A stretch of 64,000 bases of DNA from Amoebophrya sp. A120 (GCA_905178155.1 CAJINV010000010.1:521851-585850), one strand, 5' to 3'. Counted from the stretch's first letter, positions 723 through 64,000 are shown. A program made the numbers and translations. Notes: generated by a model not told the origin, from the letters alone.

Positions 723-3500
723 TCACGCCGTACACAGCTTGCCATCAAAAGCTTCTGAGATCTCCAGGCTGAGTGACCAGTCGTTTTCCATCATTGGGTC
801 TGCCGCACGCCTGGCCGATAAGTCCTGTATAATTCTGCCGCAGACGAAAAGCTCCGGCGCATCGGGTAAAATGACTCTTCTGGTTTTCGTGCGGGAGATA
901 GCATTCGCGGTATGGATTGCAAAAGTGTCTGGGTCTGGAAGATTGCAACTTGTCATGCTAAATCCGAATCATGCAGAAATCTGTGTTGCATGAGTGCCAA
1001 AAGCTGTCCCCTTTTGACCAAGTTGAGAGGGAGTTTCTCACGCAGGAGAGGCATGATAGAGACCTCAAAGAATCTGTCATGCTGCGTCTCGCATTCCAGA
1101 CCTCATAAGTCAAGGAAAAGCTGCATCACAAATCTTGCATTCTTCCAGACCCAGACATTTTTACACTTCATACGCGGTGCGATCTGCCCAAGTACTCGGG
1201 TCCTCACCAGGAGCCGGCATATCCCACGAAAAAAGTGTTACAGTTACACATTTGGCGTCAATTCAGCAACACAAATATCTCCGCATGAGAGAGAAAACTT
1301 GCATTGCTGAAATCCTACGGGAAAACACGTAAGAAACAAGGTTTGAAAGCATTTCGTGCATGACAGAGGTTGTCTGCCATGCGTGTTTTGAAAAACAATC
1401 AATGTGTAACTGTAACACTTTTTTCTTGCGATACGGCACGATCGTTCGATGCTGGCCCGAATCCGCGTCCCGTACGACAGCGTGCCATTGCCATTTTGTA
1501 TCCCAGGCCAGCTTATCTTTTGCTTCGTTCGACAGATCGACACCAGGTCCTCCCGCTTCGACGACTAGCCGGAAATGCGGGGTGGGCTCGGCCACGATAC
1601 GACGGTCGTAGCGATAAAAGTAGGCTGGCGCTCCAGATGGTAGTAGATTGGCGCCCCGCCGAGGACGCCAATAGATGGTGTAGGATGATGCGGGATCAAG
1701 GAGTGTACGGTTTGTGGCCATTTCAGCGCTTTGCAGGTCCGGTCGCTTCAAAACCGCTTCCAGACGACGCAAAAAATACTGGAAGCTCTCATCCAAAGGG
1801 CCGACGTAGTCAGAAATGATCCTCGATGTGGCAGCAATTCTTGTCCCCGTGGATTGATGTTCCCCTCCGTTCTGATCGAACTGCTGCAGCACCGAGGCAG
1901 TCGTTCCGCCTGTAGTAGTAGCAGCGCCGGATTTTTGCTCAGAAGTCGTGGTCCGGTAGGACAGCAACTGCTGCGCGAAACCAAAAGCCATCGGGGGGAC
2001 CGGCGTTGTGCTACGGAACCGGCGACTCACGCTTCGAAGCGCGAGGAGGGGGTGCGGTGCATCTGCATCTGCATCCCCCTGCGCGGGCGAGCCGAGCATG
2101 GGCAGCTGAATGAAACGCTTCCGGGACTTTTGCATTAGATGGACGGCAAATTTTCTTGCCGCCTCTTTGACGCGATCGGTCAAAGGACCGTAGTAGTAGT
2201 CTGGACCTGGAGTAGAAGCCAACCGGCTTTCCCAGCTGCTTTCCGCGAGAAAAGCCGCCAACTCGGTACGCATCTTCTCCGCCAGCGGGCCTCGTGCCCG
2301 CCCGGGGAGCACCAGGGGCCGATAAAGTTCCGGCGTCGCCGCCCATTCCGGCGTCGTATGGATTGTAAAAATGTCTGGGTCTGGAAGGATTCGAATTTGT
2401 GATGCGAAGTCTACATCATCATACAATCTGTCATGCATGGCTAGCAAAACGCCCCATGTCTTGTTTCCGAGAGAGAGGATTTGTCATGCGGATTAGGCAT
2501 TGGGATAAGTGCTCAAAATCTGTGATGCTAGAGCTTGCATGCCGGACGATCTGGGTCAGGCAAAAACTGCATGACAGATCTCGCATTCTTCCAGACCCAG
2601 ACATATTTGCAATCCATACGTCGCCCTGTCGTGCAACAAGGAGTCGAAAACTTCGTGCAGGGGATATCCTGAGTAAAAACGTACCCACACCAGAGTTGTA
2701 ATGCAGATTTGCAAAGACAGGAACACTTGTAATGCGCATCCCCATGAGAGCCATTTCCAATCGTGTTTTGGAATTTGTGATGCTGTGAACAGGCTGAGTA
2801 GCTGGATTTGTGACGCGGCTGCACTTTCTAACCTGCACTACACTGCAGAGCGCAACTTGTCACGCGTGACGCACAAAACTCCTAGGTTTGTGTTGCAAAA
2901 TCCCCATCCTGACTCTGGTGTGGGTACGTTTTTACTCAGGATAGGGGAGTGGCGTTGTTTTCCAAGTACGGACAGACTCTATTTGTCCACGTGTCCTTGT
3001 ATGGAGAAGTAAATTAACTTAAAATGAAGACCATCACTCGGCACTGAGTTCCAATTTTGGCATCTGAAGGAACTTTTAAATGTTGAAGGGTTATGATGTC
3101 ATGCGCTGTATCTTAGCCATCTAGCATGCTGCAGGCACGTGCTCGTCCTTCATCTGCTCGTATTCTGATTTATTAGAGCGTCGCGGCTCCTGCCTGCAAA
3201 TTGTACAAATGCAAAGTGGTTTGTTTACAACATGTAGTGTTGGCGCCTCATTTGTTGTTCCACCTCCTGGGATACGTCTGCAATATCCATCGACGTAGCT
3301 GCACCAATCGACAATGCTCCCGATGGTACGCTCGAGGCGGCAACCTCCAGGTGATCCGCTGTAGTAGTGCGGGGGGAACTCTTAAATTTCTGCGAGGCCT
3401 GGTGCGTCGAAGCCTGCACCACAGCCAGGCATGTTGAGCTGGCAACGATACAGGCACGTAACGGCAACAACCGCAGGAATACACTACTTCTCGGCGACAT
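723..3500 (-). CDS. Hypothetical, possibly secreted protein with 4 introner introns
   Basis: Removing elements 911, 1220, 2357 and 2665 plus one TSD each joins the ORFs in frame (..TIVP|APGEDPSTWADRTA|NAISRT..stop 723). The hydrophobic N-terminus MSPRSSVFLRLLPLRACIVA is at 3500; its link across 3010-3225 is not resolved. Confidence 0.6.
911..1172. mobile_element. Introner family A (262 bp)
   Basis: TIR TATGGATTGCAAAAGTGTCTGGGTCTGGAAG / inverse; TSD CGCGG. Confidence 0.95.
1220..1433. mobile_element. Introner family B (214 bp)
   Basis: TIR TATC...GAAAAAAGTGTTACAGTTACACATT; TSD CGGCA. Confidence 0.95.
2357..2618. mobile_element. Introner family A (262 bp)
   Basis: Family A TIRs; TSD CGTCG. 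Confidence 0.95.
2665..2943. mobile_element. Introner family C (279 bp)
   Basis: TIR TATCCTGAGTAAAAACGTACCCACACCAGAGT; TSD GGGGA. Confidence 0.95.
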
Positions 3501-3914
3501 TATCTCCACTCCTACCTTGTGAAAACAAATTATATCTTTAGTCAAAATAAAACTGTCGTTGTCTACCTCTCTAGGCGACAAAAAATGCTGTTAAGCACAA
3601 CGAACCAGCAAAAATTGTGCTACTTAAGTGTAGAAGTGTCAGGCTTCACCTACAAGCTGCAATCTCAACCTGATGTAGAAGTCAGAACAATAGGTCGTGG
3701 GGGCAAAACGAACCAGACAGCCCACGACGGCAGATCGGTCAGACAAAAAGATCGCGTGGCCTCGTTTTTTAGCAGGCTTGTTGCGGGGACCCCTGGGCGA
3801 TCTTGAAATTCTAGAAAACCAGTTTTGTTCGTTCTCATGCGGTTTGTTGATCAAGAACTTCTTCGCAGTTTGGGAGCTCAAAGTTTCGGTTTGTTATGCA
3901 AAAAGGAGCTCAAC

Positions 3915-6552
3915 TATGAGATCGTCTGAGCGATTCAAAATCAAGCGATTCAAAATTTTTTCTTCACATATCAGGGATTTCCTGACTCTTGAAAAGAGCA
4001 GCAGCATTGCTGTGCTGCATTTGACATGTTTTTTTGCGCTCGTCGAAACGTCACCCAGAAGAGTGTCAAACGAAACAGCAAGGCCGATCTCGACTTGAGC
4101 TCGTTACTTTGGCATGTGTGAACGCAATAAAACTAAGGGCAAGGCGAGCGCCTGCATTCATGAACCCGGAGCATTTGAAGAAGCAAGGGCCAACAGAGTA
4201 GGCGATCCAACAGATGCCTCTCAGGCCCACACCCTCCACTACTTGGCCCCAAAACGTGGCCGCAACCGCTGTCGGAAATAGCGGCTTCACGTGAGCGGCG
4301 GCAGAGAGGCGACGGGCTACGCACCTAAAAAAGCAGGGCCGTCCCCAGCCGGAGCTAGTCAGAGTGGCGCCAGCGCGCGGCCCATTATTCTGCCACCGCC
4401 TAGGTGGCGTTGTCTCCTGCGCGGTTTTTCTCGCATACATACAAAGAATAAGGGGCTGAAAGCCTAGCGACGAAAAACGCGCCCGCCGTTGTGTAGTGAG
4501 GGCCCCAACCCCGAAACAATGCGGCGCCACTCTCGTCATCCGTTTTGCTTTTTCTCTTGGTTGCGGGCCACGAAAAGTCCGCCAGACCTCTTGTGGAGGA
4601 AGGTGGCGTGGCCGATTTCAGTTTGGGCTACGGGCGTTGCCACCGGGAGAGGGAAAAACACGACGCGCTGCGGCCGCATTGCCAAACATGGCACAGCGCC
4701 ACCGCATAAAAACACATAACGCCTGCGCCGCCAGGCTACCCAGGGGCCCGGTGCTAGCGGTGCGGACTTTTGGCAGCTTTCTAAATGTGCTGCTGAGCAT
4801 GCCGCCTTGGCCGGGCTTACGATGTGCTATGTCTCCACTTGAGCCCACCCCACGGCAGCTTCTGCGCCTTTCCTGTAGTTGCCTGTGATCGGTGGGGCAG
4901 CGTTTGCCGGTCCCCCCACCAGTGGAAGACCCTCGTCTCTGGCCGGCGGCCTTTCTGTTCGTGGCCCTTTTCTTCTGGCCGCCAAAGTTTATTGGGCAAC
5001 AGCGCGGGGCTCCGCCTGTATTTCTTCAGCTTTGGCGCCGTGCATCAGCCGCGTGCCGCCGTGTATCCGCCAAAAACCTGCACAAAAAGAGCTGATCGCG
5101 GCACTTTTTGAATAGAATGTAAGGCGGAAAGTGCAAATTCCACGGTTTTGCAATTTGCCGATTCAAATGAGGTCCTTTTGAATCGCCGAAACCCTTCAAA
5201 AAGGACCTCTATCGAGATCCAGCATACCGTCGTGATTCCGGCTCTCGGGGGAGGCCAAAAAGGGGGTCCCGGATTGACCCCCTTCAGGAGCCGAAATCGG
5301 CCAAGCGCGACGGTATGCTCAAGAACAATGGAAAATCACGAATCGCGACGCTATGGCGCGGCCCTCTTTCATAAATAATGACCTCCACACCTTCGGCACC
5401 ATGCCCGCCCCGCCCCTTCCGAGCGCCGCTACAAGGCTTGCAAAGCCCCGCCATCAGCTCCGGACCCGCCTGCGACCCCCGGGAAGCCTCTCTCTGCGCG
5501 ACTGGCTCCGCCGGCGCCCTTTCTCGTGCCAGACGGGGCCCACAACAACGCCCAGCCGCCCTCGCGACTCCCCCCAGAGCCGCCCCTGTCGCGAAGCTGA
5601 TACCCGCGCCCCGGCGACGTCAGTCCACCAAGTAGCCCACGACATTGGCCCGCTGGCGGACTTGCCAAGGGGCCGGGCCCCCCAGTGCCATAGCAGCCGT
5701 GGGGCGCCTGCGCCCCAAACCCTCGGCGCCTTGGCCCGCCCTTCTTTGCATCTACACGGAGGAAACAACGCACCTGTGCGCCGCGTTTGTTGCTTTTTTT
5801 GTTGGCAAAGTAGCCCGCGCGGTCTCCGTGGACCTGGTCGAGGCTGTCGCAGGTTTACAGCCTTTACGCGAGCAGGCCCAATGGCATGCCCACCACGGCG
5901 CACCAGAAGCCGCCACGCCCGGCGGTCGGCCCGCTTGGGTTTTGGAATGGGCGCTGAGTTGCCCTTCACATGGCTGACGCGCGTTTTTCCCGGTACACAA
6001 CGAACTTGGCGGCACTGTTGCGTCTTGTTTTTCCGATCATTTCATGGCTTCCCGCGCACTCGCTGACTTCATCCCCTGCTTTGAAGCCTGTATAAAATGA
6101 AGTAGCTGCCTCAAGTTGAGGATGGCCACGCTGGCTTCTTTCGTAGTCTTTTGCGCGTCGTTTGGGTGATTACAAAAAGCGGCAAAAGCCGCACCATGTT
6201 GGTGGCCTCCTTTTTGTTTAAGAGTCGGAAGCGCGCCAAATACGGAAGCGATTTCTGCTGCCGCCTTACCTTTCCAGACACACGACGAAGATTCATTTCG
6301 CAGAAGGCAGCTGCGTATCTGTATTTGGAGGGAAAAAATGACCTCCAAGAACAGCCAATGTAGATAGCTCAAGTTGACGTCGGCCCACATATTTTACTTC
6401 CATAAGCTGGCGCCGACATCTCCGCCACTTACCTGAAACTGCTCCGCGCGACGCCGAATCCGGGGACGTTTTGGGAGCAGTTGATGGGATGCGTTTTATT
6501 TGAAAAAAAAATTTTGAATCGCTTGGGTTTGAATCGCTCAGACGATCCCATA
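3915..6552. mobile_element. Large (2638 bp) TIR element with introner-type ends
   Basis: About 50-bp TIR TATGAGATCGTCTGAGCGATTCAAAATCAAGCGATTCAAAATTTTTT with its inverse at ~6500-6552; perfect TSD TCAAC (3910-3914, 6553-6557). Confidence 0.9.
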
Positions 6553-7640
6553 TCAACCCCGGAAAAGCAAATCTGTGTTGCAAAGGTGAACAGCTTCGGA
6601 ACTAAGATCTTGAAGGTCTTCATCTTCCCAGATCCGAATAATGAAAAAAGTCGAAATTGAACGAAGCGATCGAGGGAACGACGTGGCGCAGCCAATTTTA
6701 GAAATGAGTCTTGATCAACATCTTTTGATCCGCAGCTATATTTATAGCATAATCTGTTCTTCACGCGCATCAACCTCCTCAGGAAGATGGCGGCACTATG
6801 ATCCTGGGCTCAGACGTTGGTACGACACAGGCATCCTGCCTTGACATTCCATTTTCCAGATGCTCTACTTGGTCATCCTCTGAATCGTCTCTTCTCCTTG
6901 TAAACTAACACTGAAGATTTTGGCCGATGGAACACTAACAATCAACGACGAAAGGAACAAGAGAAGGGAAGTTTTATCGCACTTTCAAGTGCTTTGTCAA
7001 AACCTCAGTCAATCAATGAGGTCTTTCTATTTCCGTAAAAATTGCAGGCTTCATATAATTCTCGGGGGCATAGTGATAATTTTAAGTACAATTTTGTCTT
7101 CAACTCACAGACTCGAACTCGGCCTGTCTGACATTGAAACGAAAAGTGATAGCAAGCTGTCACGAAATCATACAAGATGCGGGGAAATACCAGCTCGGTG
7201 GTCCTCGTAAACTTTTCCAGAATTCTTGCTCTGCGTGACTATGATCAACAAACTTAGCATAAATTAGTACCTCGGAGTGAAACATTGTTCTAAAAAATAG
7301 TAGGAGAGCGCGCGGCGAGTACATTGAATGCGAGATCATTGCTGCACTGCAGCAACTTAGACTGATAGAAAGAAGTTTCTTGTTCAAACACTTCTACGCA
7401 AAGCTGCTTTTGCGTTGATTTTTCTCTACTTGGTACAGGACGAACAGGATGCATTTTATCACGAATTTTTGTTTTTCGGAGTGGTCAAACAATACAAAAT
7501 ATCAACATCAAATTCAAAGAGCCTTTACGCGTTTAATACAAGCATATGTCTCTTCCGGTGGTGGAAATGATTCATCAACTTTCTTCGTATACTAGAAAAC
7601 GTAGAGGTAGATTCTTATAAAACAGCTTTCGACCCGTTAG

Positions 7641-10600
7641 TTACTCTTCTCGCCGCATGGTTCGGGCCTGCCGAATCCTCCGCGGGGGTACCTGCTGGTG
7701 CACCAACAGCCGGTGATGCTCTTCAGCATGCCCGTCTTCCGCCGCCGGTGCGTCCTCCTCCTCGTCCTCCTCTCGCAAGACCTCTTCCTGGACGAAGTGC
7801 TTTCTACTGTTTGCATTTGTAGTCCTACTTGCAGGTCTGTTCTTTCTCCCATAAGAGTTCTTCTCTCTGTCCGGGCTGGAACTTGTTGTTTTTCCGCGGT
7901 TCATCTCTGGGTGTGCTTCTACTTGTTCGCGGTGAAGCAGTGTCGACGGCGGAGAAATTTTCTTGATATTGTTAGTACTGTGTAACGACAACTTTTTTGT
8001 TGACGCACCATGTTGCTCATCCTGCTCCAATATTTTTCTCGTCGGCGGCACTTCTGGACTACTGTCTCTAGTACTGCTTCTGCTTGTAGTAGTTTTCCCA
8101 ACTTTATTCTGCGACTTGTGCTGGTACTCTGCCAGTGCCATTTGGTTCGCAGAGAGGTGTTGTGCGTGCATCAAATGGCGCTCGTCCTGCTTGTTCTGCT
8201 CGTAGTTATCCGCCAATAAATGCTGAACATCTTCTACCGCTTTCACCACCCTCTGCCCCGGCACGTGCTGCACTTCTGGATGAAAAGCTGCAAGCACTTC
8301 CGCAATTCGCTCCGCATCTTCGTCCTCGAACTCCTCTTCCTGATTGTTGGGCCCCTCATCTGCAGGTCCTCGTTCTAGTGCTTCCGTGTCGACGCCCTCG
8401 TTGTCGTTTTCATCTGCGCCTGGACTTGGTTCATCATCCATCTCATCGGCTCCTCCAGCCTCGGGTTGTTCTTGTTCTTCCTCCGAGGGAGGTGGCGTTT
8501 CCTCAAGAACTCGAGCAGACTCCACATCATCATCGTCTCCTGCACTCGCAGCTGCACCTCCTACTGCGTCTCCTTTTGCGGTCTCAACAGCTTCATCTTC
8601 TGGAGTCGCAGGTGCTGGAGCACCACGACCATGATCTTCATCACTACCTGTGGACGACGAGAGCGCAGGCGGCGGAGAAGACGGCACAAGCTCTTCCTCC
8701 GACGTCGCACCAGCAGAAGTTCCTGCAACTACTTCCGAGTCGTCCGACTGTTCGCCAATTATTGCAGTCTCCTCGTCCTCGACCCCTTCATTGCTCGACG
8801 GGGACACGACAGACTCAGCGCCTGCTTCCTCTTCCGCAGGAGCAGATCCGTTTATTTTCTCAGCTGTTTCTTCGAGATTTTCGTCATGTTGATCTGGTGC
8901 TTGGTCCGCATCTACTTGTGTGGAAGGGGTACTTCTAGACGGGCCTTCATTTTCGGGAATATTCTGCTCCGGAGCTACTTCCACCTCCTGCTGTTCTTGA
9001 TCGTCCGTCCCAGGTGTTGTATTTTCACTTGTTTGATGCCCAGCAGAATTGCCGCTGTCGGCCTGTGCGCGGCCATCCTCCAGCTCTTCTTGTTCATCCT
9101 GCTGCTCGGTCGGCAGTTCTTCAGAGTGCGGTGACTCGCTTTCTTGTTTTTCCTCTTCCGTCGGCGGACCATATGGCGTTCTCAAACGTTACATTCTCAG
9201 CTGTTACATGAATTTGTCATGCAAAAGTGCCTTGAGCCGGCAGATGATCGAGCTGCTTCGCATGACAAATTTCGGAAAGGCTAGACAGCATCTAAATCTG
9301 CGCCAAACTTGTAATGCAAAAGGTACAATCTTCCTCCTTTCACTTTTGCCAGTCTTGCATTACAAATTCATGTAACAGTTGAGAATGTAACATTTGAGAA
9401 CTCCATAGACCATTTTTCTCTTGTTGTGCAGCTGTGTTCAACATGTTCTCCTGCTCCTCGTCAGGCACAACAACATTTTTATCTTCCTCCGCAGGAGCCG
9501 TCTCGACCACTTGCTCATCCGTTGTCGCCTCTTCATCTTCTTGTGCACTGCAAATATGTCTGGGTCTGGAAGGTTGGAACTTGCAATGCTAGTCTTACAT
9601 TCCTGGTAGATCTGTATTGCATGACCAACAGAAGTCGCAGCCTCTCTTGTCATACAAAGACGCAGTTTCTCATGCAGGGTGCGTATAATGTGGAAGGGTT
9701 CTGCAAACTTGTCGTGCTCCCCTGCCTGAGGGAGCGTTTTCCTCATGCACATTTTAGCATGACAAATTTGAAATTTCGAGACCCATACTACACATTTGCA
9801 TTTCATATTTCTTGTGCCTCATTGATGTTGTTCACCTGGTCCACCGGGTCGACGTTCATATCCGTTTCAGTTTGTCTATTTGACACGACTGAAGGCACTT
9901 GATGGTCCTCTGCAGCTCCGCTTTCCGAAATATTAACGCTCTGCTCGTCCGCCTCTTGTTCTACTACTTCCATCGGTGTAGCAGCAATACCATCAGTAAA
10001 AACATCTTCACCCCCGCCGGTTGTAATGTCCTCTCCTTTATCAAATGCAAAACTGTCTGGGTCTGGAAGATTCTGAGACTTGTCATGCACGTTTTGCATG
10101 AGGCATGATGTCTGTGATGCATACCGTAGCATCACAGATTTTTCGAGGGGTTCTTGATGCCTATTTCGCATGACAAATGCCCTATCCGCGTGGCAATAGC
10201 AAAAAGTACATTCCCTTTGCTCCTCATGCAATGCAAATTTTTTTGGAATCCCAATGCAGCGTCACAGGTTGCATTCTTCCAGACCCAGACATTTTTGCAT
10301 TTGATATCCTTGCCGCTCTTGCTCTTCTTCATCTTCGTCCGAAGACATGATTTGATTTTCAACATCTGAGTCGTTTGTTTTTACTACTTCGCCGACTTGT
10401 TCAGGATCGATTTCTGCTGCTGGTTGTGCAGGATCGTCTTCTTCACTGGTGTGATGCTCTGCTTCTGAGTCCTCTTCTTCCTCATTGCTGTCCTCGGCAG
10501 ATGAAGCAAGAGTGGTCGCAGGTGTGTCGTCTGTAGTAGTTGCGCCACCCTCCGCCTCCGCGTCCGCGTCACCCTCCGCATCCGCGTGTTCATCTGGTAC

Positions 10601-13600
10601 TTGTACCTCTGGCCCCGGTTGCTCCACCTCCCCGTCTGCATCCACGTCAACTTCCTCTCCTTCATCATTCTCCGCTGCTGCATCCTGCTGCTGCTTCTGC
10701 TGCTGCTGTAGTAGAGCCGCGGGTTGCTGACCCACCGCCGTGGTCGAAGTGGTAGTAGTTGTCGTGTTGGTGTCATTTTTGTCTGTCAAATTAAACCTCG
10801 CTGTGAGGGTCGTCGTGACCTCTCCCGGCTCTCCGGTGAACGCGTTCCCGGCTGGCATGGGCTCTGTCGGCGAGAGTCCGGATCTAGCGAGCGCAAGGCC
10901 GACCGACGGCTGGTCCGCACGGCTGAAAACTGCGTAGTACCTGTTTTTTTAACATCCTGTAGTTTGTTGGTCCTCTCGTGTGTAAGAATGTCCAGAAAAC
11001 AGGTCTGTAGCGCGCATGGCACTGTCCTGCGAAAGAGTGAGCGCACGGTGCGCACGAGAGATAGATGTGTTTGAAGAAATGTTGAAGTGACTGTATCAGG
11101 AGCAGAGCAAAGTACTAAAGCTTCTAAATCTAGTAGAAAGTTAATAGTTAGTACTTCCGCATGAAGGCCATTCCCGCGACGATCGCGCCACCCGGAATGC
11201 TTTCATTCGGAATGTATCCTGGGCAAAAACATCCCCACCCCAGAGTCAAGATGGGGACCTCGCAACACAAGGCGAGAAGTTTTGGGAGTCACGCATGACA
11301 ATTTCCTCTCTGTATTGTAGTGCATGTGCAGTTTAGCAAGCGCAGCAGTGGAGCATAAAGCACTCTACTCATCCTGTTTTACAGCATTACAAAGTTCAAA
11401 ACGCGATTGGAAATGCCTCTCATGGGGGTGCCTCAGCTCTTTATATGATTGACTGCAAGTCCAAATCTGCCTGACAACTATGGGGTGGGGACGTTTTTCA
11501 CTCAGGATAGAATGTCCAAGGGCGTCATTGCCAAACTGCACATCATTTCCCCCTGGTCCACCTCTGCGAGACTGCTCGCGCCGCCTTCTGCACCGCGAAG
11601 CCTGCTCTTTGACAACTTCAATTTTCGTCGGGCCGCGGCGGACGCGGACATTGTTGTTGGCAAAGTCGCAATCATGTAGTCGTCCCTCGTCAACCGCATC
11701 GGCCGCACCTATCAAATGCAAAAGTATCGTACGGTACTCGTAGAAATGCATCACAAATTTTCTCAGCATGAAAAATTAAATTCGTAGTGCGGATTTACCT
11801 TAAGGAAGAGATTTGTAATGCATGATTGCAATTACTACGAGTACGATACTTTTGCACAGGATAGCACCTCCCCGGCAGCATTTCTCAAGTGAAACGTCAG
11901 ATCCGCGTAGATGTTTTGTTGGTACGCCACGTCGCGGCACCGCCGGTCTGGCAACAGCCGTTTTAACTCCCGGTAAACATGTTTTGGAATTGTGAACAGC
12001 CTGTATCCACTGCAAATGTGTCAGTCTGTGCATGGAACAGTGATTTGAAACTTGTGACGCTACTATAGGATTCTTATTCTAAAAAACGCTGCATTTTTGC
12101 CTGAGAGAGCAGTAAGAGGAATCAAGTTTTTGCTACGCGGACGAGAGGGCAACATTTTTCATGCGGGATAAGTTGATCAAGAAACACACAGAAAATCTAA
12201 TGATGCTAGGGCATACTTACATCATGAGAGAATCATCCTCATGCATCATGCACAACGTGCATGACAAACATTGCACTCTTCCAGACCCAGATGACATCAT
12301 ACATGCAGTTGATAGACTGGTGCCGGAATCTATGATGAGGTTTTTCACTGTTACGGGGATATCGTGATTCCGCAGCTTTTTCTCATCCTCCGGGGACAGA
12401 CCACTACCACCGGGAGAATTATATTTGTATGCATTGCAAAGGCATCGCATCGTACTAGTATGAATTGCATTACAAATTTGCTCAGCATGAGATGAACTGG
12501 AATTTGTCATGCTGTTCTACCTTAAGGACAAGACTCGTCATTCATAATTGCAAGTAGTACGTGTACGAGTACGATACTTTTGCACAGGATAACTTGCCCA
12601 CTGGGTCGATATTATTTGCCGTTTTAGAATCTTCCTGCTCGCCAGTGTTGTTGTTGGTTTCGTTGGACGATGTTGTACTGTTCTTTGTCGAATTGTTGGA
12701 CGATGGGTCGTCACCGAGTGTAGAAATTGTCCGGCTGCTCCCAGTACTGGTGCTCACGGAGTGCTGTTGGTGACCACGCTGGCCGTGATGGTGCACCGCC
12801 GCTTTTGATGTAGACAACCCCGATTTGGAGGTTCTCAGTTGTTCTGTCGTTGTAGTTGTTCCTGCGAGATGTGGCTCTTGTTCAGAGGCTATTGTTGTTG
12901 TACTACTTCTCGCTCCGTGAATATAATTCTCCTGTTCTTCTTGCAAAGAAGACGTGCTGTGTCGGTGCACAGCGATACCCGGCAAGGAATTGGAATTCAT
13001 TTTCGCATGATGATCCGTAGTCTTCGCATTCGCACGCCGGCTGTGTCGAACAAGTTGCACCTGCTGCTGAGGTAGTTCAGGCTTGGCTGCGGCTGGTGTC
13101 GGCCAGTTGTGTTCTTTATTCGAAACCTGTGAAGAATCATCCGCATCGAAAGATTACTTTTACAATTGCCAGCTGACATACGCTACTTCTCGTTCTCCCT
13201 GAGGTGAAACCTTTACTCCACATGAATTGCATTCTTGCAAAAAAACCTTGCACCTGGGCGCAGAGCAGGAGGACAGATCCTAAGTACTTCAAAACAAGAT
13301 CACATCTCATAGAACAAAGATAGATACTTACCGACGGTCTCGTCCCCACGACCGCCCGCTGCCTCTCCTGCCGCTTTTTCTCCCCGATCCTGACTCGGTA
13401 CCGGTGCATCTCTATCCAAGGAAAAAAGTGTTACAGATACACATTTGTAATGAACTCAGCATCACAAATTTGCCTCGCATGACGGAGAAAACTTGTAATG
13501 CAGAGATCATAAGGCAAAACACACACGAAACGAGACCCGCAAGCATTTTGCGCATGACAGAGGTCGTCTGCCTTGGGTGTTTTGCAACACAATGTGTAAG

Positions 13601-49690: not shown

Positions 49691-49899
49691 TATCGCAAGA
49701 AAAAACTGCTTCACTGTAAACTTGTGATGCATAAAATGGAACACAGAAGTGTTTGTCTTGCTGCATATGCAAGAAAGAGGATTTTTAGCTGTGTTTTCCC
49801 TTGGGAAGCTTGCATGGCAAATTTTCTCTGTCATGTAAAACGAACTTGTTATGCAAAACTTGCAAAATCCTTACAGTGAAACAGTTTTTTCGTGGGACA
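49691..49899. mobile_element. Introner, B2 variant outside any CDS (209 bp)
   Basis: TSD ATCAT/ATCAC; right end GACA. Confidence 0.85.
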
Positions 49900-50113
49900 A
49901 TCACTCCTCTGTCTCTACTGCTGGGGGTGTTAAGAAATCAAAATTTTGTTGTCTGAAGTAGTAGACGGCTCTACTCGTCTACTCAAGTACATAGGAGAAG
50001 ACACCGCGATGCATCTTATGGTTTCTGTTTTCTGTGACAAAAAAGTGTGCAAAAGCTTTCAGAATAGCAAAGCCCGCGTGAGAAATAAGTATTCTTGGGA
50101 GAACTACAAAGCC

Positions 50114-53100: not shown

Positions 53101-56100
53101 CTCGTTGCAATTACTACGAGTACGATACTTTTGCACAGGATATCATGACCTTGCCGTCGATCTCGCAACGGAACTCCGGTGGTGCGTTATCCAAAGGAAA
53201 AAACCCCCCTCCCCATACTGAAAAGGTATATGTTTGGAGATTTGTGATGCTGATTTGTAGTCACAAATCGTATCTGTCTTGCAAGAAGCCAACTCCGCAG
53301 GCTCCGCCGCATTGTGCAGGCGGTTTGTCATGCTCTTGGGCCTACAGCGCGATTTTTTTTCATGCTAAGTGCCTAGGCCAAAGCCTCTCTATTCACACTT
53401 AATATGGGCCTGCAGTGCTCTCCAGCATGACAGCTCGGATTTGTGTACACACATCCAGCATCAGAAACTTCGTTTTGATATGGGCAGGGGGGATTTTTCC
53501 ATTCAATATGCGTCGATGAGTGATCGCGAGGCGATCTTGATCTTGCCCTTTTCCTTCTTCTCGCTTATGAAATGCAAATATGTTCGGGAGGTCTGGAAAC
53601 TACTTGTAATGCTGAATAGTCAGGATTGACTGTGCCTTTAAGCGCAGTACAGCATGACCAAATTTTCAAACGCTTTCTCAAGCGCAGAACGCATTACAAA
53701 CTGCGCTTTTGCAAGACGAAAGCGAAACTGTAGCGCTTTACATATAATTTGCTGTGTACTGTACGCAATACAGATTTTTTAAATATGCGACACACGCAAT
53801 ACAGGTTCAACCTTTCCAGAACCAGACGGCATATTTGCAGTTGATATCCTTTTTGTTTTCCTGATTGGTGTCCAGGGCAGGAAGGTCGCCCAAGTTTGTC
53901 TGGTCGTATTGGCTTGTTGCCGGGACGGCCTGCTGCTGCGCTTGCTGCTCGGCGAGCTGTATGAATTGCAAAAATGTCTGGGTCCGGAAGGTTGGAACTT
54001 GTCATGCTGAATCTGAATCACGCAAAACTCTGTGTTGCATGATTACCAAATGCTGCCTACTTTTGATCAAGTTGAGAGGCAGTTTTTTCACGCAGGATAG
54101 GCATGATAGTGATCTCACGGAATCTGTCATGCTAGGTCCTCCATTACAGATCATATGGGTCATGGAAAACCTGCATGACAAGTCGAGCAAAGTTCCAGAC
54201 CCGGACATTTTTGCGTTTGATAAGCTGTGCCGCCTGCTCCGCGGCTTGCTGCTGCTCCATGAGATCCCTGGTGGAGGGGTGGTAGATAAAAGAATTTGGG
54301 TTTTATTCTTTTTCAACATGCGGGGGCGGTGCTGTGTGTTCGTACGGTACTTCGTGCGTTCACTTCATTCACCTCTGGGGGGTGAAAGTGAAAAAACGAT
54401 AGCTAAATACTCTCCTGCAAAGAATCAAAAGTGACGTTGTATACAGGTTTTCCCTTTCCTGTGCCACTGCTGCGGGGTCGTACTGCGTATTCAAAACTTG
54501 CCCAGACAGGGAGGCCAGCTGCTCTTCAAAAATTTTCGCTTGGAGCTCGGTGTAGGGCACCTTTGTTTTTAGATACCAGACTTCACTTCCTCCGCTGTCT
54601 TCTTCACGAGTAAGTACTTACTATGAGAGTCTCATGCAAAAAATGAAATAGGTTGCAGCGAGTGTATTTTTTGCATTTCATCATCCAAAAATCACTATAG
54701 TACAAATAAATACGCAGTCGTCCATTATGAGTGGCTGCCCGCAGATTGGGTCTGTCGCACTAAACTGTAGCCAATCCGCGAGCGCTTGCCGGTCGAAGAC
54801 GTGGCCGTAGGGGGTCTTTACTGGGTCCGTCATAAACGCGCCCGACAACTGGCACAAGGCGTCGTTGTCCGCGTTTTGCTGTAACTCCGTACCGGGTTCC
54901 TGCTGGTACTGCTGGTCCTCGGGATTTTGCCCTTGCCCACTGCCATCCTCCAATATTGTTTGAAAAACCACTTCATCCATCACCTTCACCCTCAGTCATT
55001 TTTGTCATATTATGAGAATTGGTGAAGTCAGGCAGGTCCAAGTTTCAATGTCTACACGGCCACATACTGCAACATGAAGCGAGTGCGCATGACAGATTGT
55101 GGGTTGTCGATGTGATGGTGATTTTGCAAATTCGATATCCATTTCCTCTGTGTCTGACTCTTCTTCGCTGTCGAACATGCTATCTGTTTTGAGAATTTGC
55201 GAAACAGTTATTTCTCCTCTCCCCTGTGCTATCGTAGTATCGGTGTACTTAGCTGCTTCACAAGCTTCACAATACATAGCGACAGCGAGGACGATAATAT
55301 GCATGACAAACAACTCGCTTTTTTACCTTTCTCCTTCTTTCGGACCCACTGCAGGCCGTATTTTCCATTTCGTTTTCGTGTTCGATTCTTGGTTATGGAA
55401 AGGAAACCAATAGTTTTTTCGTACTTAAAGCCCACCAGCAAGAATCATCATGCCTCATGCCTACCTTTCCGCAAGAAGGGCGCGCTAAGTTTTGTTTATT
55501 CTCTGTCACCCGGAGGTTCCAAAAACATCCTAGTCGCTCACGCACATCTTGAGCTGCTGTGGCTTTAATAATGTGAAACCATTTACATTGTTTTCCCATC
55601 CCATACTCTTTCTTCTCCATTTGCTGCGCCCTCTGCCCTCCTCGTCGTCACCCGTAACTGAGTTTTTGATGTGCAGTTGTGTCAACGACAACGTCAAGTA
55701 TCAATCTGCATGAAAGGCACGACTTGTGCTGCAGACATCGCATTACAGATCCGCGCCTGCTATTCAGAAAAAAGACGCGGGCCGCCTCTCCAGCAGCACA
55801 GCTGTGGTCGTCGCAGCCTGCAACAGAACTGCTCGCACAGCCACCCGCAGGACCCCGCGGTTGTGCACTGCGAACAGCGTGTGAGCATCCCGTAGGATAT
55901 GCCGGGCTGCCGCCGGAGCGATGGGTTGTAACGCCGTTCCAAACAGTGTTCCTACCCACGTGCTTTCATTTTCTTACAAATGGAGGATCGGGTAGCCAGA
56001 ATTGCTTTGCTAAATACTACGAAGAAGTAGATTCGGAGGAAACTACTGCAAAGCGGAAGCACGAGGTTCGGCTACAGAAGTTGTTAAGTACCAGCACACA

Positions 56101-59055
56101 AACAGCTTTTTACCCACTTGAATGACATTTTTACTTGACAAAAAAATCCTTTGATTACTTACCTCCCATCCCATTCGCCCCGACGTCGTCCGAAATTTCG
56201 CCGAACAAGAAGGGCATCATCTGCATGGCCTTCACATTCGCCCGCGACAGGGGCAGACTATGTCCCGAAGACTCCACCACCCTGCGCTGCAACCGCTGCT
56301 GCCTTTCGGGCGGCAGCTGCGCATACGCCTGCTCGACGACTTGAAGAATCTCGTCCTTAAACCTTGCTTTGCTAATATCGGCGTTGACCAGAATCTTGAA
56401 AATCAGTTCCATATGGGTCAGGCTGGAGGGGACTAGTGGCGCCTCCAAGATGCGCAGCAAAAAGTCCGTGTCCTGGATATAACTTGCTCAGCTGCTACAA
56501 CCTCATCCTCAAATCGGTTACCCTAGAATATGAAAATCTGTGAAGCAAGAACCCTACTCCCACAGGATTGCGCATGACAAGTTCTGGAGTCCCAATCCGC
56601 ACTAGAATCTGGCGACATTTGTATTGCAGAAAGTGAAACGCTGCGCGTATCTGTCATGCTCATCCTGCAACACAAAACCCAGACTGTATTGTAACGCTTG
56701 ATGAGATTGTAACGGTTGAGCAGGTCATACTGGAAGTGCGCACGGAAAACGTTGATGTTGAACGTGATGACAACGAAGGTCTGCAGTGTCGCCTTCAGGT
56801 TTTGGTACTCAATCCCGTCGAGAGTAAATTTCGTGTTTTCGTACCTGAAATGTTGATACTTAAGTCATAATGGGTTTTTTGTGCATGTTAAGCAGAAAAA
56901 ATGAAAAGAAACAAAGATCTTTAGTACACGATTCCCATGCGAACTCTAGCAACCACCATTGAAGTGAAAATCAGAATACAGTGCCGGCAAGATGTTGTCA
57001 ACGTAGGGGAACATGATGTCTTGGATTATCGTTGATTGCGTCGCCATATGAATTGCAAAAGTATCGCACTTGTATAAATGCATTGCAAATTTTCTCAGCA
57101 TGAGAAATAAAATCTGTAATGCTGATTTACCCTAAGAAAAAGCTTTGTAATGCATGACTGCAATACGAGTGCGATACTTTTGCACAGGATACGCCAGGTG
57201 CATCCTTAATTTCTTCTGGTTTTCGCTGCAGTACAGCAGGCAGTTGTATGACAGTGCACAACTCCCTTTGCTCCGCCAGATTTGTATAGCATGAGCGGCG
57301 AATACAAGCATCAGCAAGAGTACCGGTTTTACATGACAAATTTGCACTGGAGCGTAGTGCTATTTGGGTTACCAGAACTTGTCATGCATACTCGTGACAG
57401 GAGGGAAAGCGTAGAGTTGGTATTCTGCATGAGAAATGAGATCAAGGGGGAGTTGTGCACTATCATAAGTTGTGCAGCGCGGTGAGAAAGAACCGGATGA
57501 TGATATCCGTTCGCAGATGCGACTGCTGGTGCTGGCAAATGCAGCGCCCAAAGGCGTCTACCAGTTCGAACTCAATGATAGACATGATAAGTCCGTTCAC
57601 GTGCTTGTTCAGCAGGGCGGTGAGTTTCGCGGGGATATGGGAAGGGAAAAAGATTGGACAGCAAATTTACACTCGGTGGACAGGATTTGTGATTTTGTGA
57701 TGCAGATGCGACAATAGAGTTGTAGTAGCTATTGCCAGCACCACGAATACGATGCTGCTGATTTATCAACTGTTGCTGTGCTGTTCTTGTTCTGACGCGC
57801 ATTCTGTGGCTCATGAATACACGCATCACAAATCCTCCCTACGTCCTCGCTGTTGGATCCAATCGTCTTTTTCTTCCAGCGTAAATGTCTTGGTTGTTGT
57901 AATCCTCATCCATCTTCTCATCGCGAAAAAACCTGATACGTTGTTTTCTATTTTGCTGTACTGCTAGTGTTAGTGATCATGAATGGTGCGCATGACAAAT
58001 CATATCATGCGTCTCAATCATGCATCACAAAACTCCTGATTATACACTGCATCCGCTGTCGTCAAGTCCACCAGACATCGTGCTGCTGCCTCCTGCGTAT
58101 CCAAGACCAAGAATTTTCTCGAGTTGCGCCTTGGAACATCAAATGGTCCCGTCTGTATTGAGAAATGTTGCAGCGGATGCAACCCTGTATTTTTGCAATC
58201 CACGTACTACTGCGTGGTATCGTGTCTACAGATGATGATGACATCTTCAACAACTTTATCCCTGTCATAACCTCGAAACTTCAAATTCTGTCATGGATAC
58301 TGCAGCTGAAACGTGCACTCGCCGCACCGGATGACGAAGCACACAAGTGACACCGCACCGGCTATGTCGTTATTCGTGAGTTCCATTAAATGCTTGCCGG
58401 TCACCGTTTCGTACCCTACTACTGAAAAAAGCGTCTGGAGCATGTACCTGAATTTCAGTTTTGAAGTATTTATAATTCGGTTCCATTTATTTTCATCGGG
58501 GGGCTCGGAAGGACTTTTATTGCGATGAGTTGTTGCGGTTCTCTGTCTTCTGTTCGCGCATGACAAACGCAAGTTCCGTCCTAAAGATAGAACAAGCACG
58601 TAGTTCTGAAAAAGATTTTTTCTATTGCAAAATTATCCGATATACATCCTCAACAAGCCGGTCACCCCAGGCTGCACCCATTCGTAGGTTTCGACGCAGT
58701 TGAGCAACACATCGTAGATTTCGTTGATGTTCATCAACAGTGCCACCAAATGCTCCAGCACCCGCTCCTGCCCCAGGAACATGGAGATTTTGGTCAACGC
58801 GGCAAAGCACGTTTCGTACAGCTCGAAGTTTTCCACTTCCGTGCCGCATATCGCGAATTCCAGGCAGTTATACAGAATCGACACGGAGTTCGGGTCCCCG
58901 TGCTTGCTCATGCCCCAGGCGCCAAGCAAGTCCCCGAAATCCGGGTGGAAGTCATCAGTTTCCTGCTTTGCCTTCAACTCCTCTTGCAGCGTCTGGAGTA
59001 AAAGCTCAATGTCGTCATTGAGGACTTCGAAGTCCACCTCATCGGGCCCCGACAT
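50114..59055 (-). CDS. U-box E3 ligase-like protein with two U-box domains and a helical N-terminal region
   Basis: LCQLSGAFMTDPVKTPYGHVFDRQALADWL..DPICGQPL (54700-54860) and PPEFRCEIDGKVM|TNPIRSPYGNYFEKKTLEKWIESCGSV|CPLTQKPL. A single-gene model from MSGPDEV at 59055 is inferred. Confidence 0.7.
50222..50486. mobile_element. Introner family A
   Basis: TSD ACCGA. Confidence 0.95.
50571..53142. mobile_element. Introner family E carrying a ~2.4-kb insert
   Basis: Left E end at 50571, right E end at 53142, perfect TSD TCATG; removal restores the U-box. Confidence 0.9.
51053..51595. repeat. Higher-order repeat (~251-bp period) containing four G-run/C-run hairpin motifs
   Basis: GGGGGGGGCGCGGGGGGGGGCGAGGGCCCCCCGCAT near 51155, 51262, 51407 and 51514. 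Confidence 0.88.
53188..53508. mobile_element. Introner family H (321 bp)
   Basis: TSD TGCGT. Confidence 0.93.
53566..53846. mobile_element. Introner family A, diverged
   Basis: TSD TCGCT/TCCTT. Confidence 0.85.
53960..54222. mobile_element. Introner family A
   Basis: TSD AGCTG; same subfamily as 911. Confidence 0.95.
56478..56729. mobile_element. Introner family K (252 bp)
   Basis: TIR TATAACTTGCTCAGCTGCTACAACCTCATC; TSD CTGGA. Confidence 0.9.
57047..57191. mobile_element. Introner family E (145 bp)
   Basis: TSD CGCCA. Confidence 0.93.
57247..57467. mobile_element. Introner family I (221 bp)
   Basis: TSD AGTTG. Confidence 0.92.
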
Positions 59056-60001: not shown

Positions 60002-62302
60002 TCACGTTGCCATTCCCCGCAACTGCGCCACCAGGGCGAGCATCCTTGCGGCGAACGCCTCCAACGCAAAAATCTCCTTTCCCGATTTCGCGATGGACAC
60101 CGTGTAAACGCTCGCGACGTTCCAGATCTGATCCGTGATGGCCGGCGCCATCTCCGCCATTTGCACGCAAATGGTTTCGAGCACCAACTGGGCACTGATC
60201 GTGGCCGCGAGCAGGGTGTAAAACTTCGCCCGGATCTCCAGCACCGTTTTTGGCACAAAGGGCCCGCCGAGGAGGGACGTGGCGATGGACTTGCACAACT
60301 TCTCCCACGGCGCGTCAGGAATCTCCTGCATCCACTGCGGCTGCTGCTGGTTCGCCATCATGGTGACCATCGTTTCCAGAATTAACAGCGCTTTCCGCAT
60401 GTCCTGCCTGCAAGCGTGGACGATTTTTTCGAAGTTGGTGATCCCGATCAGGTTGTGCAGATTCTCCTTCTCGAGCGTTTTCTTCAAATTCGCAACTATC
60501 TCCCCCTCGCTCGGCAACGGTAGTCGGTACACGTAGCAACGCGACTAGTATGAGAGTTCATAACTCCCCCTCATTTGTATGACATAAAGAGCATTACAAA
60601 CACCACCCAGTACAGGTGGACCGTGTGCATGACAAGTTTATGCGCCGAGTGTAGAAGTACTGTTTGGATTTCCGGAATTTGTCATGCACGCGGTGCCACA
60701 AGGTAGCAGCTGGATTTGGGTTTTTGCATGACAACTGAGGGGGAGGGGGAGTTGTGCACAGTCATAACTGGATGGGAAGAATCATGGCCCCGATGCTGTT
60801 GGAGACGAAAATGAACCGGTTTGTCTCCGTATCCAAGACAAAAACGTTGTTAGTGTAAATTTGTGATGCGCAACATGAGAGATGACTGCGTCTGTCATGC
60901 TTGGCATGCATTGTAGGGTTCATTACAGGGCGTTTTCACGTACTATCTGCGCATGACAGGTTTTTGCTGTCATGCCAGACAGATTTGTAATGCTGTTCCT
61001 CCAAAAAAGATACACCTACAATGTTTTTTTCTTGGATACTCCGATCGCACCTCGATCAGCCGGCGCAGCGCGGTCTGACACTCGTTTGACAGCTTGTCTG
61101 CACCTTTAAGAATCACCACCTTGAAGGCCGCGCGGTTCAGCTGTGAAAAAGAATAAGAAGTGAATGCGAAATATAATATCCAGGGCTTCGTCTTTGTGTC
61201 CTGCACAACCTCAGTGCGATTCAGTCGCGCGAGGATCATCTTAATAAGTAAGTACTATATGCACATCAATTCTACTCATGTCGTAGTCCGTGCTTCAGCT
61301 TCATCGCGCGTCAACGTCGAACAGTTTGTTGTGAAAGAAACACCTAACACTACAAATACCGGCCGCTCCCCGGTGAACTCTTTGAGCAAAGTTTTCGCCA
61401 CTTTGACATCTTTGATTCCCACGTCAGACAGGTTGATTTCCATGTGAAACAGCGAGGTTTTGGCACAAATCTCAAACTTTCCACTGCCCTCGCCGCAGAT
61501 TCGCATTTTGGTCGTGTTGTCGTCGATCGAGTGCCCGAAAATCTGCCGGAGCAGGGCGTAGACCTGTGGAGTAGAGGGATTAGGTTTTCCATTTGTTCCA
61601 CTTCGCTCGTATGGCAAGACAAATTCAAATTCCAACCATGCTCGGTGGCAATCATGCAATACAATTTTGAGTTTCCTGTCGTAGTATACATTCATACATG
61701 GTCTATACCCTGGTCATTTTCCCAGCGCCATTTGGTCCGTACAACAGCAGATGCGGCAGCTCTTTCGACTTCGCCGCGTTGAGCATGAGACGCGAAAACT
61801 CGCCGTGGAAATCCATATCGTCCAAATATTGCGGCTGGTACTTGTCCACCCACAGCAGCGACGGGCCCTCCGCGGAAGGTTTCGTCACGATTCTTCGTTT
61901 CTTCAAAACGAAAAAGTCCTCCTTGCTAGCCGCCGCGCCGTCGTTTTGGTTTATTCCGACAGCAGGAGGAGCCATGGGGTGGAGACCACCTGTTGTCCCA
62001 GAAGTAGAGGAAGCCCCGGCCACCGCACCACCGTCTTGCTGATAATTCCCCGTCGCCATTAGCAGTGGGTGCGGTTTATTTTCAGTGGTGGCATCTGCTG
62101 CAGCGGCACTACCTGCAGCTCCACTATTGGCTGCGAACAACCCCTTAGCAGTAGTACCTGCGGTGCTGGAAGAGGACGAAGAACTGGCGCCGCCCTGGTT
62201 TGTGGTCTGCTTCGAAGAAGTTTGCTTAGAACCAGCCGGCCGCTTCATCGGCTGGGCCGCAGTGGTGCCCGGCTTCGGGAGACCCAGGAGACTACCCAAC
62301 AT
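60002..62302 (-). CDS. RFC3: Replication factor C small subunit (human RFC3 / yeast Rfc5 type)
   Basis: LWVDKYQP, LPHLLLYGPNGAGKMT, FKVVILKGADKLSNECQTALRRLIE, ILPIQ|SRCY, DMRKALLILE, LEAFAARML. Confidence 0.9.
60549..60766. mobile_element. Introner family I (218 bp)
   Basis: TSD ACTAG/ACTGG; sits immediately before the SRC motif. Confidence 0.92.
60830..61038. mobile_element. Introner, B-like variant L (209 bp)
   Basis: TIR TATCCAAGACAAAAACGTTGT; TSD CTCCG. Confidence 0.9.
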
Positions 62303-63203
62303 GGTTCTTTCACTTTTGCTACTAGCTCGTGCTACAAGGGGGCAACACGGCTTGTAGCTTTAGTTCGAGCTACACCTTGGTTTAGCTTAGTTACTTCTCA
62401 ACTATGCGCAAATCGCTTTTATCATTCCGAGCTCGGCTGCTTCGATGTCTATCTAATGCTAGAATGAAAAGGAACATCCCTGAAATAAAGCCGGTTGATG
62501 TTGGTGCTGCTGCTAAATGAGCTGCTGTTGATGTCTCTGCGTAACTAGAGTTCGCGATGATCTCGGTAACCGGACTGTGAAGTGGCCTTTGTTCTGAGGG
62601 TAATCGTAATGCCTACAAGATATTAGTATACCAAACAACGGGTTGCAAAAGGGCTACAGATTGACTCGCCATCTTCGTCCTTTGGCAAAAGAATAGGCGA
62701 AGAGGAAGAGTCATCTAGAGTCATGAACATCATGATCCTCAAACCTAAATGAATGATCCTCGATGTTGTTGGTGGTGCACCATGGAAAACACCAAAAATG
62801 GATCTTCTCTGTCTCCGTTCAAACACGACACTGCTGGAAGATGTAGCTGAAGCGGAAAACGACTGACCTGTGCTTCACAATCAACATGATGCCCCCGGCT
62901 GCAGTATGTCCTCACCTGCGGACCAGGATTAAGCCGATTACTTAGAACAGCTACATCAAATTTAATCTGTTACAAGGCGGAAACAATTCGGATAAAATCA
63001 GAGCAATATTCTCGGGAAGAAACTACTGCTTTTCCGTGTGATAGATGTAGACTACGACGCCAGCGAATAAAACATGGAAAAGAATCTCGAAAATGAAACA
63101 TCAGAACTCAATTTTTCATTTTTGTTTCACGAGCCAGAACATCATCTCCTCAACAACCGAGCAGTTTATTTGGTCGCTCCTCTCTTCTAGTCGTGTCATT
63201 CCC

Positions 63204-64000
63204 TCAGTACGTCACGAAAGACGACGGTTCCGGTGTGTCAGCTTGCTCCGCTGATTCGACGTCGTTCAAGCGGTCCATCTCATTGAGCTGCGTCGTCCAC
63301 TCCGACTCTTCCTGTTTCTTCACGCGCCGCACGTACTTGTTCAGGGGCGTAGAGTTTTTGATTTTAACGCCCCCCGCCTCCGCGTCCTCCTGTTGTCCTT
63401 GGTGCTCGTCCTGCTTTTGTTTATTCGCATTGACACTTCTGTCCACGTTTACGTCCGCCGATTCGACAATCTCGGCACGATCGTGGTCCTGGCTGTATCC
63501 TGAGTAAAAACCTCCCCACCTCAGAGTTAAGATGGGAATTTCGCTACACAAATCAACACGTTCTGGCTGCTGCGCATGACAAATTTGGCTCGTAGTGTGA
63601 GCCCATTTAGGTAGTGAAAGCTGCATAACAAATCGCCCATCTTATCCTGCTTCTAGCATGACAAGTTCCCAGGCAGCCATAGAAAGCGCTGCTTTGTGGC
63701 TCCTGCGCATGAGAAACATTTTCGGCATGCAGATGTGCATTACAAACCTGGTGCGGGGACCTTTTTACAGAGGATAGGCTGCCTTTGCTGCTCATTTTTT
63801 CCTCCTCCTTCGCATTTGTTGACAACGCCCCGGCGGTGGCCGCGGGGGGTTCTCCACTACGATCATCATCAAAACTGCGATCATCGCACACTGGCGCCGT
63901 GAAGATCATCTTCTTCTGCGAGGTCGTGGGTGAGCTACTTGAGGCTGACGTAGCTGGCCCGGAGCTGCTGCAGGCGCACATCCGACCGCCGAGTGTGGAG
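63204..64000 (-). CDS. 3' end of a hypothetical low-complexity protein
   Basis: ORFs 63607-63981 and 63204-63626 join in frame (SSKGS|QDHDRA) after removing element 63496. Confidence 0.6.
63496..63776. mobile_element. Introner family C (281 bp)
   Basis: TSD GGCTG. Confidence 0.93.

Follow-up and report, generated by a model that had tools for sequence, protein, structure and literature searches.

The closest described counterpart of the elements analysed here is the introner system of Amoebophrya sp. A120. The elements themselves interrupt the genes of a 64,000-nucleotide stretch of DNA (GCA_905178155.1, CAJINV010000010.1:521851-585850), which as a whole is called the window below and whose positions are counted from its first letter. 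According to the text of Farhat 2021 (PMC7789003), 65% of the introns in A120 are non-canonical, as validated by RNA-seq, and the non-canonical introns have a mean length of 240 nt; the introners amount to 29,850 copies in 1,954 families, with inverted repeats composed of TAT, seven variable bases and at least AAA, and with direct repeats of 3-5 nt, for which the legend of Fig. S19 gives a 5-bp example. Gozashti 2025 (PMC12130899) reports 58 A120 families, and most of the 38 among them that were considered are classed as DNA transposons with terminal inverted repeats (TIRs), 150-320 bp long and with largely non-canonical borders. A review (PMC11282704) discusses the A120 case beside the nonconventional introns of euglenids, in which, as described there, the two intron ends are likewise held together by a stem formed from TIRs, the borders are non-canonical and repeats resembling a target site duplication (TSD) are present, and which differ in belonging to another lineage, in carrying CAG/CTG near their ends and in their independent origin.

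An initial annotation of the window had described about 62 mobile introns without GT-AG borders between positions 911 and 63776 and had mentioned reports of non-canonical introns with inverted and direct repeats from Amoebophrya. The window is A120 itself, and the elements hence belong to the published A120 system, whose TAT rule is already given in Farhat 2021 (PMC7789003), rather than to a parallel one. Three exons are 100% identical to deposited proteins named Amoebophrya sp. A120, and the A25 orthologue of one of these proteins is 51% identical. We estimate a probability of about 0.9 that the elements are the published A120 introners, i.e. short inverted-repeat elements with a 5-bp duplication in coding sequence. 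Every tested feature of these introners was found in them. Common to the window and to the description in PMC7789003 are the organism, the TAT-N7-AAA ends, repeats at the borders, a large number of families, the length (mean of 240 nt there, median of 262 nt for the first 64 elements here), the hairpin, the coexistence with GT-AG introns and the reading as relatives of miniature inverted-repeat transposable elements. The published direct repeats vary between 3 and 5 nt and the inverted repeats between 8 and 20 nt, whereas in the window the duplication, when anchored on TAT/ATA, is nearly always 5 bp and the TIRs run over 20-60 nt.

Elements were detected by inverted-repeat scans, by BLAST with 57 seed elements and by gene modelling. 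This yielded 66 elements with a total of 19,123 bp, or about 30% of the window, spread over the range that the initial annotation had given; 64 come from a first catalogue and two decayed ones were joined later through gene modelling. Among the 132 ends, 121 begin with TAT, 112 with TAT(C/G) and 97 with TAT-N7-AAA, in agreement with the end rule proposed earlier. The 5-bp TSD is perfect in 41 of the 66 elements, has one mismatch in 16, two in seven and three or four in two, so that 57 of 66 have at most one mismatch; cross-paired flanks, used as the null, match in 3 of 4032 cases (0.07%). Other duplication lengths between 3 and 10 bp were rejected, since they give at most one perfect case each in the first 64 elements (0 at 3, 4, 6, 7, 9 and 10 bp, 1 at 8 bp). 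A strict detector requiring both TIR and TSD found 32 pairs in the window, whereas all of 30 Markov-4 simulations gave 0. Of the 104 candidates of a relaxed scan, about 40 with weak TIRs had neither a family match nor a duplication and were discarded as chance findings. An Rfam search of the window gave no match.

A reading frame is broken by 64 of the 66 elements; of the other two, one sits inside an older element and the second lies outside the gene models. The interruptions of conserved motifs cited earlier proved right, namely DTGS|SDTW, DSGTS|LF, R|QGYG, IQ|SRC and that of a U-box gene. Removal of an element together with one TSD copy had been said to restore the frame. When the element plus k nucleotides is deleted, long minus-strand frames are left only at k = 2, 5 and 8 (50, 53 and 52 of 64, versus 28-34 at other k), and the X1 contig described below and exact identity to deposited proteins fix k at 5. 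At 30 junctions this removal rebuilds three deposited proteins with 0 differences: P0001 (929 aa, 4 elements), P0122 (912 aa, 13) and P0123 (341 aa, 13). The remaining 34 frame-breaking elements were checked by the open frame only. As our models equal the deposited proteins, the elements are evidently handled as introns in the public annotation already. In alignments of P0001 with the A25 orthologue and three other homologues, no gap occurs at any of the four element junctions; this comparison is at the protein level, and such continuity says nothing on introns in A25 DNA.

Evidence at the level of transcripts comes from a comparison of positions 28400-48390 with four runs out of nine listed; in the list as a whole, X1-X4 are RNA only by guess, and X5, of a kind not recorded, is DNA-like. 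One X1 contig (contig 1, 3943 nt, depth 28) covers the acyl-CoA synthetase (AMP-binding) gene (28460-32817, minus strand), whose spliced model is P0001, in five displayed pieces. With contiguous contig coordinates it skips 270 nt (265+5) at 28777-29041 (family A, TSD with one mismatch), 267 nt (262+5) at 29605-29866 (family A, TSD perfect) and 381 nt at an ordinary GT-AG intron (30528-30908, minus strand). In the remaining gap 84 contig bases stand against 736 genomic ones, and the 652 nt lost equal (299+5)+(343+5), i.e. the two elements at 31585-31883 (family B, TSD with two mismatches), for which one border is displayed, and 31974-32316 (singleton, TSD perfect), with the sizes of both taken from length arithmetic. 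Thus, four elements, each with five additional nucleotides, are skipped, and three of the four have no GT-AG reading; one is possible for 28777 and none for 29605, which forms a single long hairpin.

Several points have to be held against this interpretation. X1 counts as RNA by the guess of the tool, provides contigs and not reads, and informs on one gene, in which the skipping of two of the four elements is supported in part by length arithmetic. The deposited proteins were likely annotated on the same assembly and do not constitute independent data. The raw RNA runs X7 and X8 hardly cover the intron-bearing genes compared. In X7, 113 reads join an element end to the flank of another locus; one copy or more outside the window must therefore be either retained in RNA or represented by reads from DNA. 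Furthermore, the decayed or interrupted elements at 21173, 46708 and 50571 have no clean TIR/TSD and still break frames, so that the hairpin rule is not a strict one.

The elements fall into families, as had been stated, but their number, given before as at least ten, depends on the threshold: 5, 17, 22 and 51 clusters result at 60, 65, 70 and 80% identity. At 65% there are seven multi-copy families with 25, 8, 8, 7, 3, 3 and 2 members, which hold 56 of the 66 elements, and ten singletons. Further evidence of repeat families comes from X5, whose contigs are far deeper over elements than over the flanks. Both orientations are present in six of the seven families and nearly balanced in the largest, family A (13:12); among clear pairs, 40 have the same and 40 the opposite orientation. 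The two pairs named earlier as opposite are indeed so, with 81% versus 71% identity for 9172 and 47502 and 86% versus 66% for 37578 and 53188. Several families share the internal motif TGT(C/G/A)ATGC, which points inward at both ends; 195 of its 217 matches lie inside elements, corresponding to 12.6 per kb in elements versus 0.45 outside. The X1 skips, the 13:12 orientation and the combination of TIR and TSD support the earlier reading of an orientation-independent system of transposons acting as introns.

The GT-AG borders of U2-type spliceosomal introns are not found in these elements. Even when the cut is shifted within the duplication, a GT-AG reading is possible for 4 of the first 64 and a GC/GA-AG reading for 2 more. 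At the favoured cut the first intron base is C in 19, G in 18, A in 14 and T in 13 cases, and the 3' dinucleotide is unconstrained (n=64). Where the two TSD copies differ, the base that is kept marks the cut, which makes 8 of the 30 protein-checked junctions informative: at least one upstream TSD base is kept at one junction, at least two at three, at least three at one (34001-34281) and at most four at three, and the X1 contig agrees with these protein-based bounds at two junctions. A single cut after TSD base 3 or 4, i.e. 1-2 nt before TAT, fits all eight, which is suggestive only; the lower bound of three bases comes from one junction, and the data are just as compatible with a cut whose position varies. 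The aspartic-protease gene described below has five mismatched duplications, three of them able to separate a 3-base from a 4-base cut.

Taken together, the elements are likely lost from the RNA along with five duplicated bases. For the route of removal we lean, by a small measure, towards a spliceosomal one, in which the TIR hairpin aligns the exon ends and the stem serves a remodelled spliceosome as the mark from which its cuts keep a fixed distance. In such a model the paired TIRs would fold into a hairpin and so bring the exon ends together; the one element that was folded (29605-29866) reaches -138 kcal/mol with a z of -10.9 (0 of 200 shuffles). The cuts would most likely fall one base ahead of TAT and four bases beyond ATA, and orientation would be irrelevant because the TAT signal is present at either end. 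The usual spliceosomal donor consensus is GUAUG. An intron cut after base 4 would start with N-U-A-U-(G/C), which resembles this donor with a free first base, and AG would not be needed. Together with the nine A120 splice pairs of Table S4 in Farhat 2021 (PMC7789003), all of which start with NT, this start leads us to favour a spliceosome over an endonuclease and ligase.

The latter route, in which a structure-specific endonuclease with a ligase, or a domesticated transposase, would cut the TIR hairpin at its base without a spliceosome, is the strongest competitor, although we consider it unlikely on balance. It would account for the lack of a GT or AG rule in any register, with GT-AG readings confined to the 4 of 64 given above, for symmetric ends in both orientations and for the strong hairpin, and a similar route is suspected for the nonconventional introns of euglenids. 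The failure to detect U1 snRNA in A120 (PMC7789003) counts in its favour and against the spliceosomal model. On the other hand, ordinary GT-AG introns share the same genes, A120 keeps 83 of 89 spliceosomal proteins as well as U2, U4, U5 and U6 (PMC7789003), and the presumed 5' end NUAU(G/C) would lie close to a spliceosomal donor. More doubtful still is a second, ruler-like route, in which the TAT/ATA-capped hairpin alone would set the cuts (one base before the stem, four after it), with no need of GT, AG, U1 or orientation, through a non-spliceosomal enzyme that might derive from the single transposase moving all families.

With respect to mobility, the elements probably represent non-autonomous DNA transposons that depend on an integrase-like transposase for their movement. 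The uniform 5-bp duplication, the TIRs, the balanced orientation and the shared motif suggest one transposase acting in trans, and it seems reasonably probable to us that this is a single DDE enzyme related to those of IS3EU/GingerRoot/Ginger, with its gene outside the window, and acting on the shared ends. This enzyme would bind the TAT ends and the repeated TGT(C/G/A)ATGC motif and would make a 5-bp staggered cut. Transib has CAC..GTG termini and a 5-bp duplication, and was rejected as the source because the window ends are TAT..ATA. Ginger1 and Ginger2 have TGT..ACA termini. The 5-bp duplication of the window elements matches the 4-5 bp of Ginger1/Ginger2, and their ends share the TA..TA termini of IS3EU/GingerRoot, for which 6-bp duplications are described (PMC10045372). 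The enzymes of IS3EU/GingerRoot and Ginger2 are integrase-related according to the same source. In A120, family 38 of Gozashti 2025 is labelled Ginger-like with '5-bp TSD, TA/TA termini', and that article speaks of a Ginger-like element without Ginger's termini and TSD (PMC12130899); this family is about 810 bp long and has integrase-like open reading frames (ORFs), whereas the elements of the window are short, and a search for ORFs of this kind in them gave none.

This assignment meets with several objections. The 6-bp duplication of IS3EU/GingerRoot is perfect in 0 of 64 elements as compared to 41 at 5 bp, and the TGT of Ginger is contradicted by a second end base that is A in 123 of 128 ends and G in 2 (first 64 elements). 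Thus, the elements are given no superfamily, as in the initial annotation, which had known of none with TAT ends and a 5-bp TSD; that view now has to be qualified by the Ginger label of family 38. No transposase match was obtained among the window ORFs tried, and Farhat 2021 (PMC7789003) likewise found no transposase in A120 and read this as ruling out a general mobilisation by transposase. The same finding would suit a spread through an RNA intermediate, by reverse splicing or retrotransposition, to which the assignment of some A120 introner families to retroelements in Gozashti 2025 (PMC12130899) also lends weight. The uniform 5-bp duplication, the TIRs and the balanced orientation of the window elements, however, fit a staggered cut in DNA. 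Reverse splicing favours the sense orientation and makes no duplication. We therefore regard an RNA intermediate as improbable.

If the elements were cut from the DNA in the growing stage, transcripts would never contain them. Ciliate internal eliminated sequences are TA-bounded, sited in coding sequence and lost precisely with one duplication copy, and the window elements resemble them in their TA-bounded ends, in their precise loss with one TSD copy and in their coding placement (64 of 66); RNA without elements would look identical in both cases. But contigs of the DNA-like run X5 contain elements at a flat, flank-like depth of 41-46, with contig 31641-34071 spanning the element at 31974 and contig 39233-44762 spanning three. 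The X5 joints listed are repeat-to-repeat, with no exact element excision among them (1706 further rows lie outside the listing). To our knowledge, no split between germline and soma has been described in Amoebophrya, and we judge excision from DNA very improbable. Least probable of all, and largely refuted for the acyl-CoA synthetase gene, is the idea that the genes are transposon-riddled pseudogenes or that transcripts retain the elements, for although retention would break frames (element plus 5 nt is not a multiple of three in 37 of 64) and an element end is present in some X7 reads of another locus, the spliced frames are open and match the deposited proteins exactly, the conserved motifs are intact as compared to homologues and the X1 contig is spliced.

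All modelled host frames lie on the minus strand. Beyond the acyl-CoA synthetase gene and the genes of P0122 and P0123, with 4, 13 and 13 elements, respectively, elements were counted in a gene of unknown function (4), in the aspartic-protease model (15), in a C2H2 zinc-finger gene (3), in two U-box genes (5 and 4), in a gene for a likely clamp-loader subunit (2) and in the last gene (1). Six ordinary GT-AG introns were located, spread over four element-bearing genes. Long stretches without elements (3000-9100, 22000-28700 and 39300-43700) are also present, and with 64 of 66 elements in coding frames there is a strong exon bias, from targeting or from faster decay elsewhere. In what follows, family letters are given in brackets and the TSD is perfect unless mismatches are stated.

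The two-lobed aspartic-protease model (7644-19215, minus strand, 2413 aa) has its catalytic motifs about 1050 residues apart and contains long low-complexity inserts, and the unnamed protein P0125 (1997 aa) is a relative with the same layout. The motif DTGS|SDTW is split by the element at 17502-17753 (A) and the second motif, DSGTS|LF, by that at 12004-12314 (A, one mismatch). Further elements are 9172-9407 (G), 9542-9807 (A, one end TGT, one mismatch), 10039-10306 (A), 11215-11509 (B), 11710-11863 (C), 12428-12591 (C, one mismatch), 13413-13623 (D, two mismatches), 14278-14539 (A), 14833-15088 (A, two mismatches or, alternatively, an 8-bp repeat), 15222-15427 (singleton), 15489-15754 (A), 16595-16856 (A) and 17967-18231 (A). 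GT-AG introns lie at 10941-11154 (214 nt), exactly where the initial annotation had approximately placed one, at 13127-13331 (205 nt) and at 16243-16415 (173 nt), all on the minus strand.

The gene of P0122, of unknown function (33930-40238, minus strand), contains the elements 34001-34281 (singleton, one mismatch), which is the sole junction needing at least three upstream TSD bases, 34384-34650 (A), 34691-34840 (C), 34929-35181 (A, one mismatch), 35311-35566 (A), 35616-35919 (E), 36120-36389 (B), 36990-37190 (D), 37245-37519 (A, one mismatch), 37578-37898 (E, one mismatch), 37955-38261 (B, two mismatches), 38308-38459 (C) and 39002-39259 (A, one mismatch), together with a GT-AG intron of 213 nt (36654-36866, minus strand). 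Beyond it, an element-free transcript of 2318 nt (40813-43130) is covered by one X1 contig, and its depth in the raw RNA run X7 rises to about 500-fold in each direction.

In the gene of P0123 (43642-48735, minus strand) the elements are 43718-44058 (singleton), the decayed 44115-44390 (singleton, one end CAT, one mismatch), 44499-44661 (singleton, two mismatches), 44719-44868 (C), 44924-45175 (A, one end TCT), 45215-45425 (D, one mismatch), 45711-46510 (B), an old decayed element at 46708-47188 (three mismatches), 46972-47180 (D, one mismatch), 47234-47459 (F), 47502-47737 (G, opposite to 9172), 47774-47948 (singleton), 48074-48355 (A, two mismatches) and 48395-48648 (A, one end degenerate); a GT-AG intron of 159 nt lies at 45488-45646 (minus strand). 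The family B element at 45711 holds an insert of about 480 nt (45980-46486), flanked by a perfect 13-bp direct repeat that derives from one end of the element; judged by its depth in X5, this insert probably has a few copies in the genome. The younger element at 46972-47180 is nested in the end of the old one, and the deposited protein treats the whole of 46708-47188 as one intron, whose removal may be recursive or tolerant of a broken stem. One end of the element at 48395-48648 (inspected within 48390-48670) has no TAT start; over about 18 bp it is similar to the exon next to it, as would be expected if gene conversion or a longer duplication had replaced the original end.

In the remainder of the window, a tandem repeat with a unit of about 68 nt occupies the start (1-340), followed by the elements 911-1172 (A), 1220-1433 (D), 2357-2618 (A) and 2665-2943 (B), and further on by 20559-20837 (B), the decayed 21173-21311 (C, TSD not recognisable, four mismatches) and 21637-21900 (A, one mismatch). 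The element at 49691-49899 (D, one mismatch) is outside any modelled reading frame. It is followed by 50222-50486 (A) and 50571-53142 (C), both in the U-box gene, and by 53188-53508 (E, opposite to 37578), 53566-53846 (A, two mismatches) and 53960-54222 (A). The U-box frame at 50571 reopens only when all 2572+5 nt are removed. Within this family C element an insert of 2.4 kb (50685-53104) contains tandem repeats with periods of 18, 107/145 and 251 nt and G-runs. It lacks TIRs and may be either a mobile element that inserted here or a longer version of family C. A 134-aa minus-strand ORF in it (51899-52300) matched neither Pfam nor PDB sequences. The last elements are 56478-56729 (singleton), 57047-57191 (C), 57247-57467 (F), 58098-58299 (singleton, one mismatch), 60549-60766 (F, one mismatch), located at IQ|SRC of the likely clamp-loader subunit, 60830-61038 (D) and 63496-63776 (B). 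A motif-rich, intron-like stretch without clear TAT ends (57600-58030) is possibly a decayed element and was left out of the count.

Overall, the phenomenon described in the initial annotation is confirmed as real and correctly read, and it was already published for A120 in 2021. What is added here is small: the near-uniform 5-bp duplication, the balanced orientation, the shared internal motif and the fit, suggestive only, of all informative junctions to one cut. Orientation balance, a fixed cut and an internal motif were not found in the searched text of PMC7789003, PMC12130899 and PMC11282704, and figures S19-S25 and other files may hold them. The A120 introners are among the oddest intron systems in eukaryotes. 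As mismatched duplications report the place of the cut, they offer a cheap handle on how these introns are spliced, while the question of what moves the elements can be approached through the internal motif that they share.

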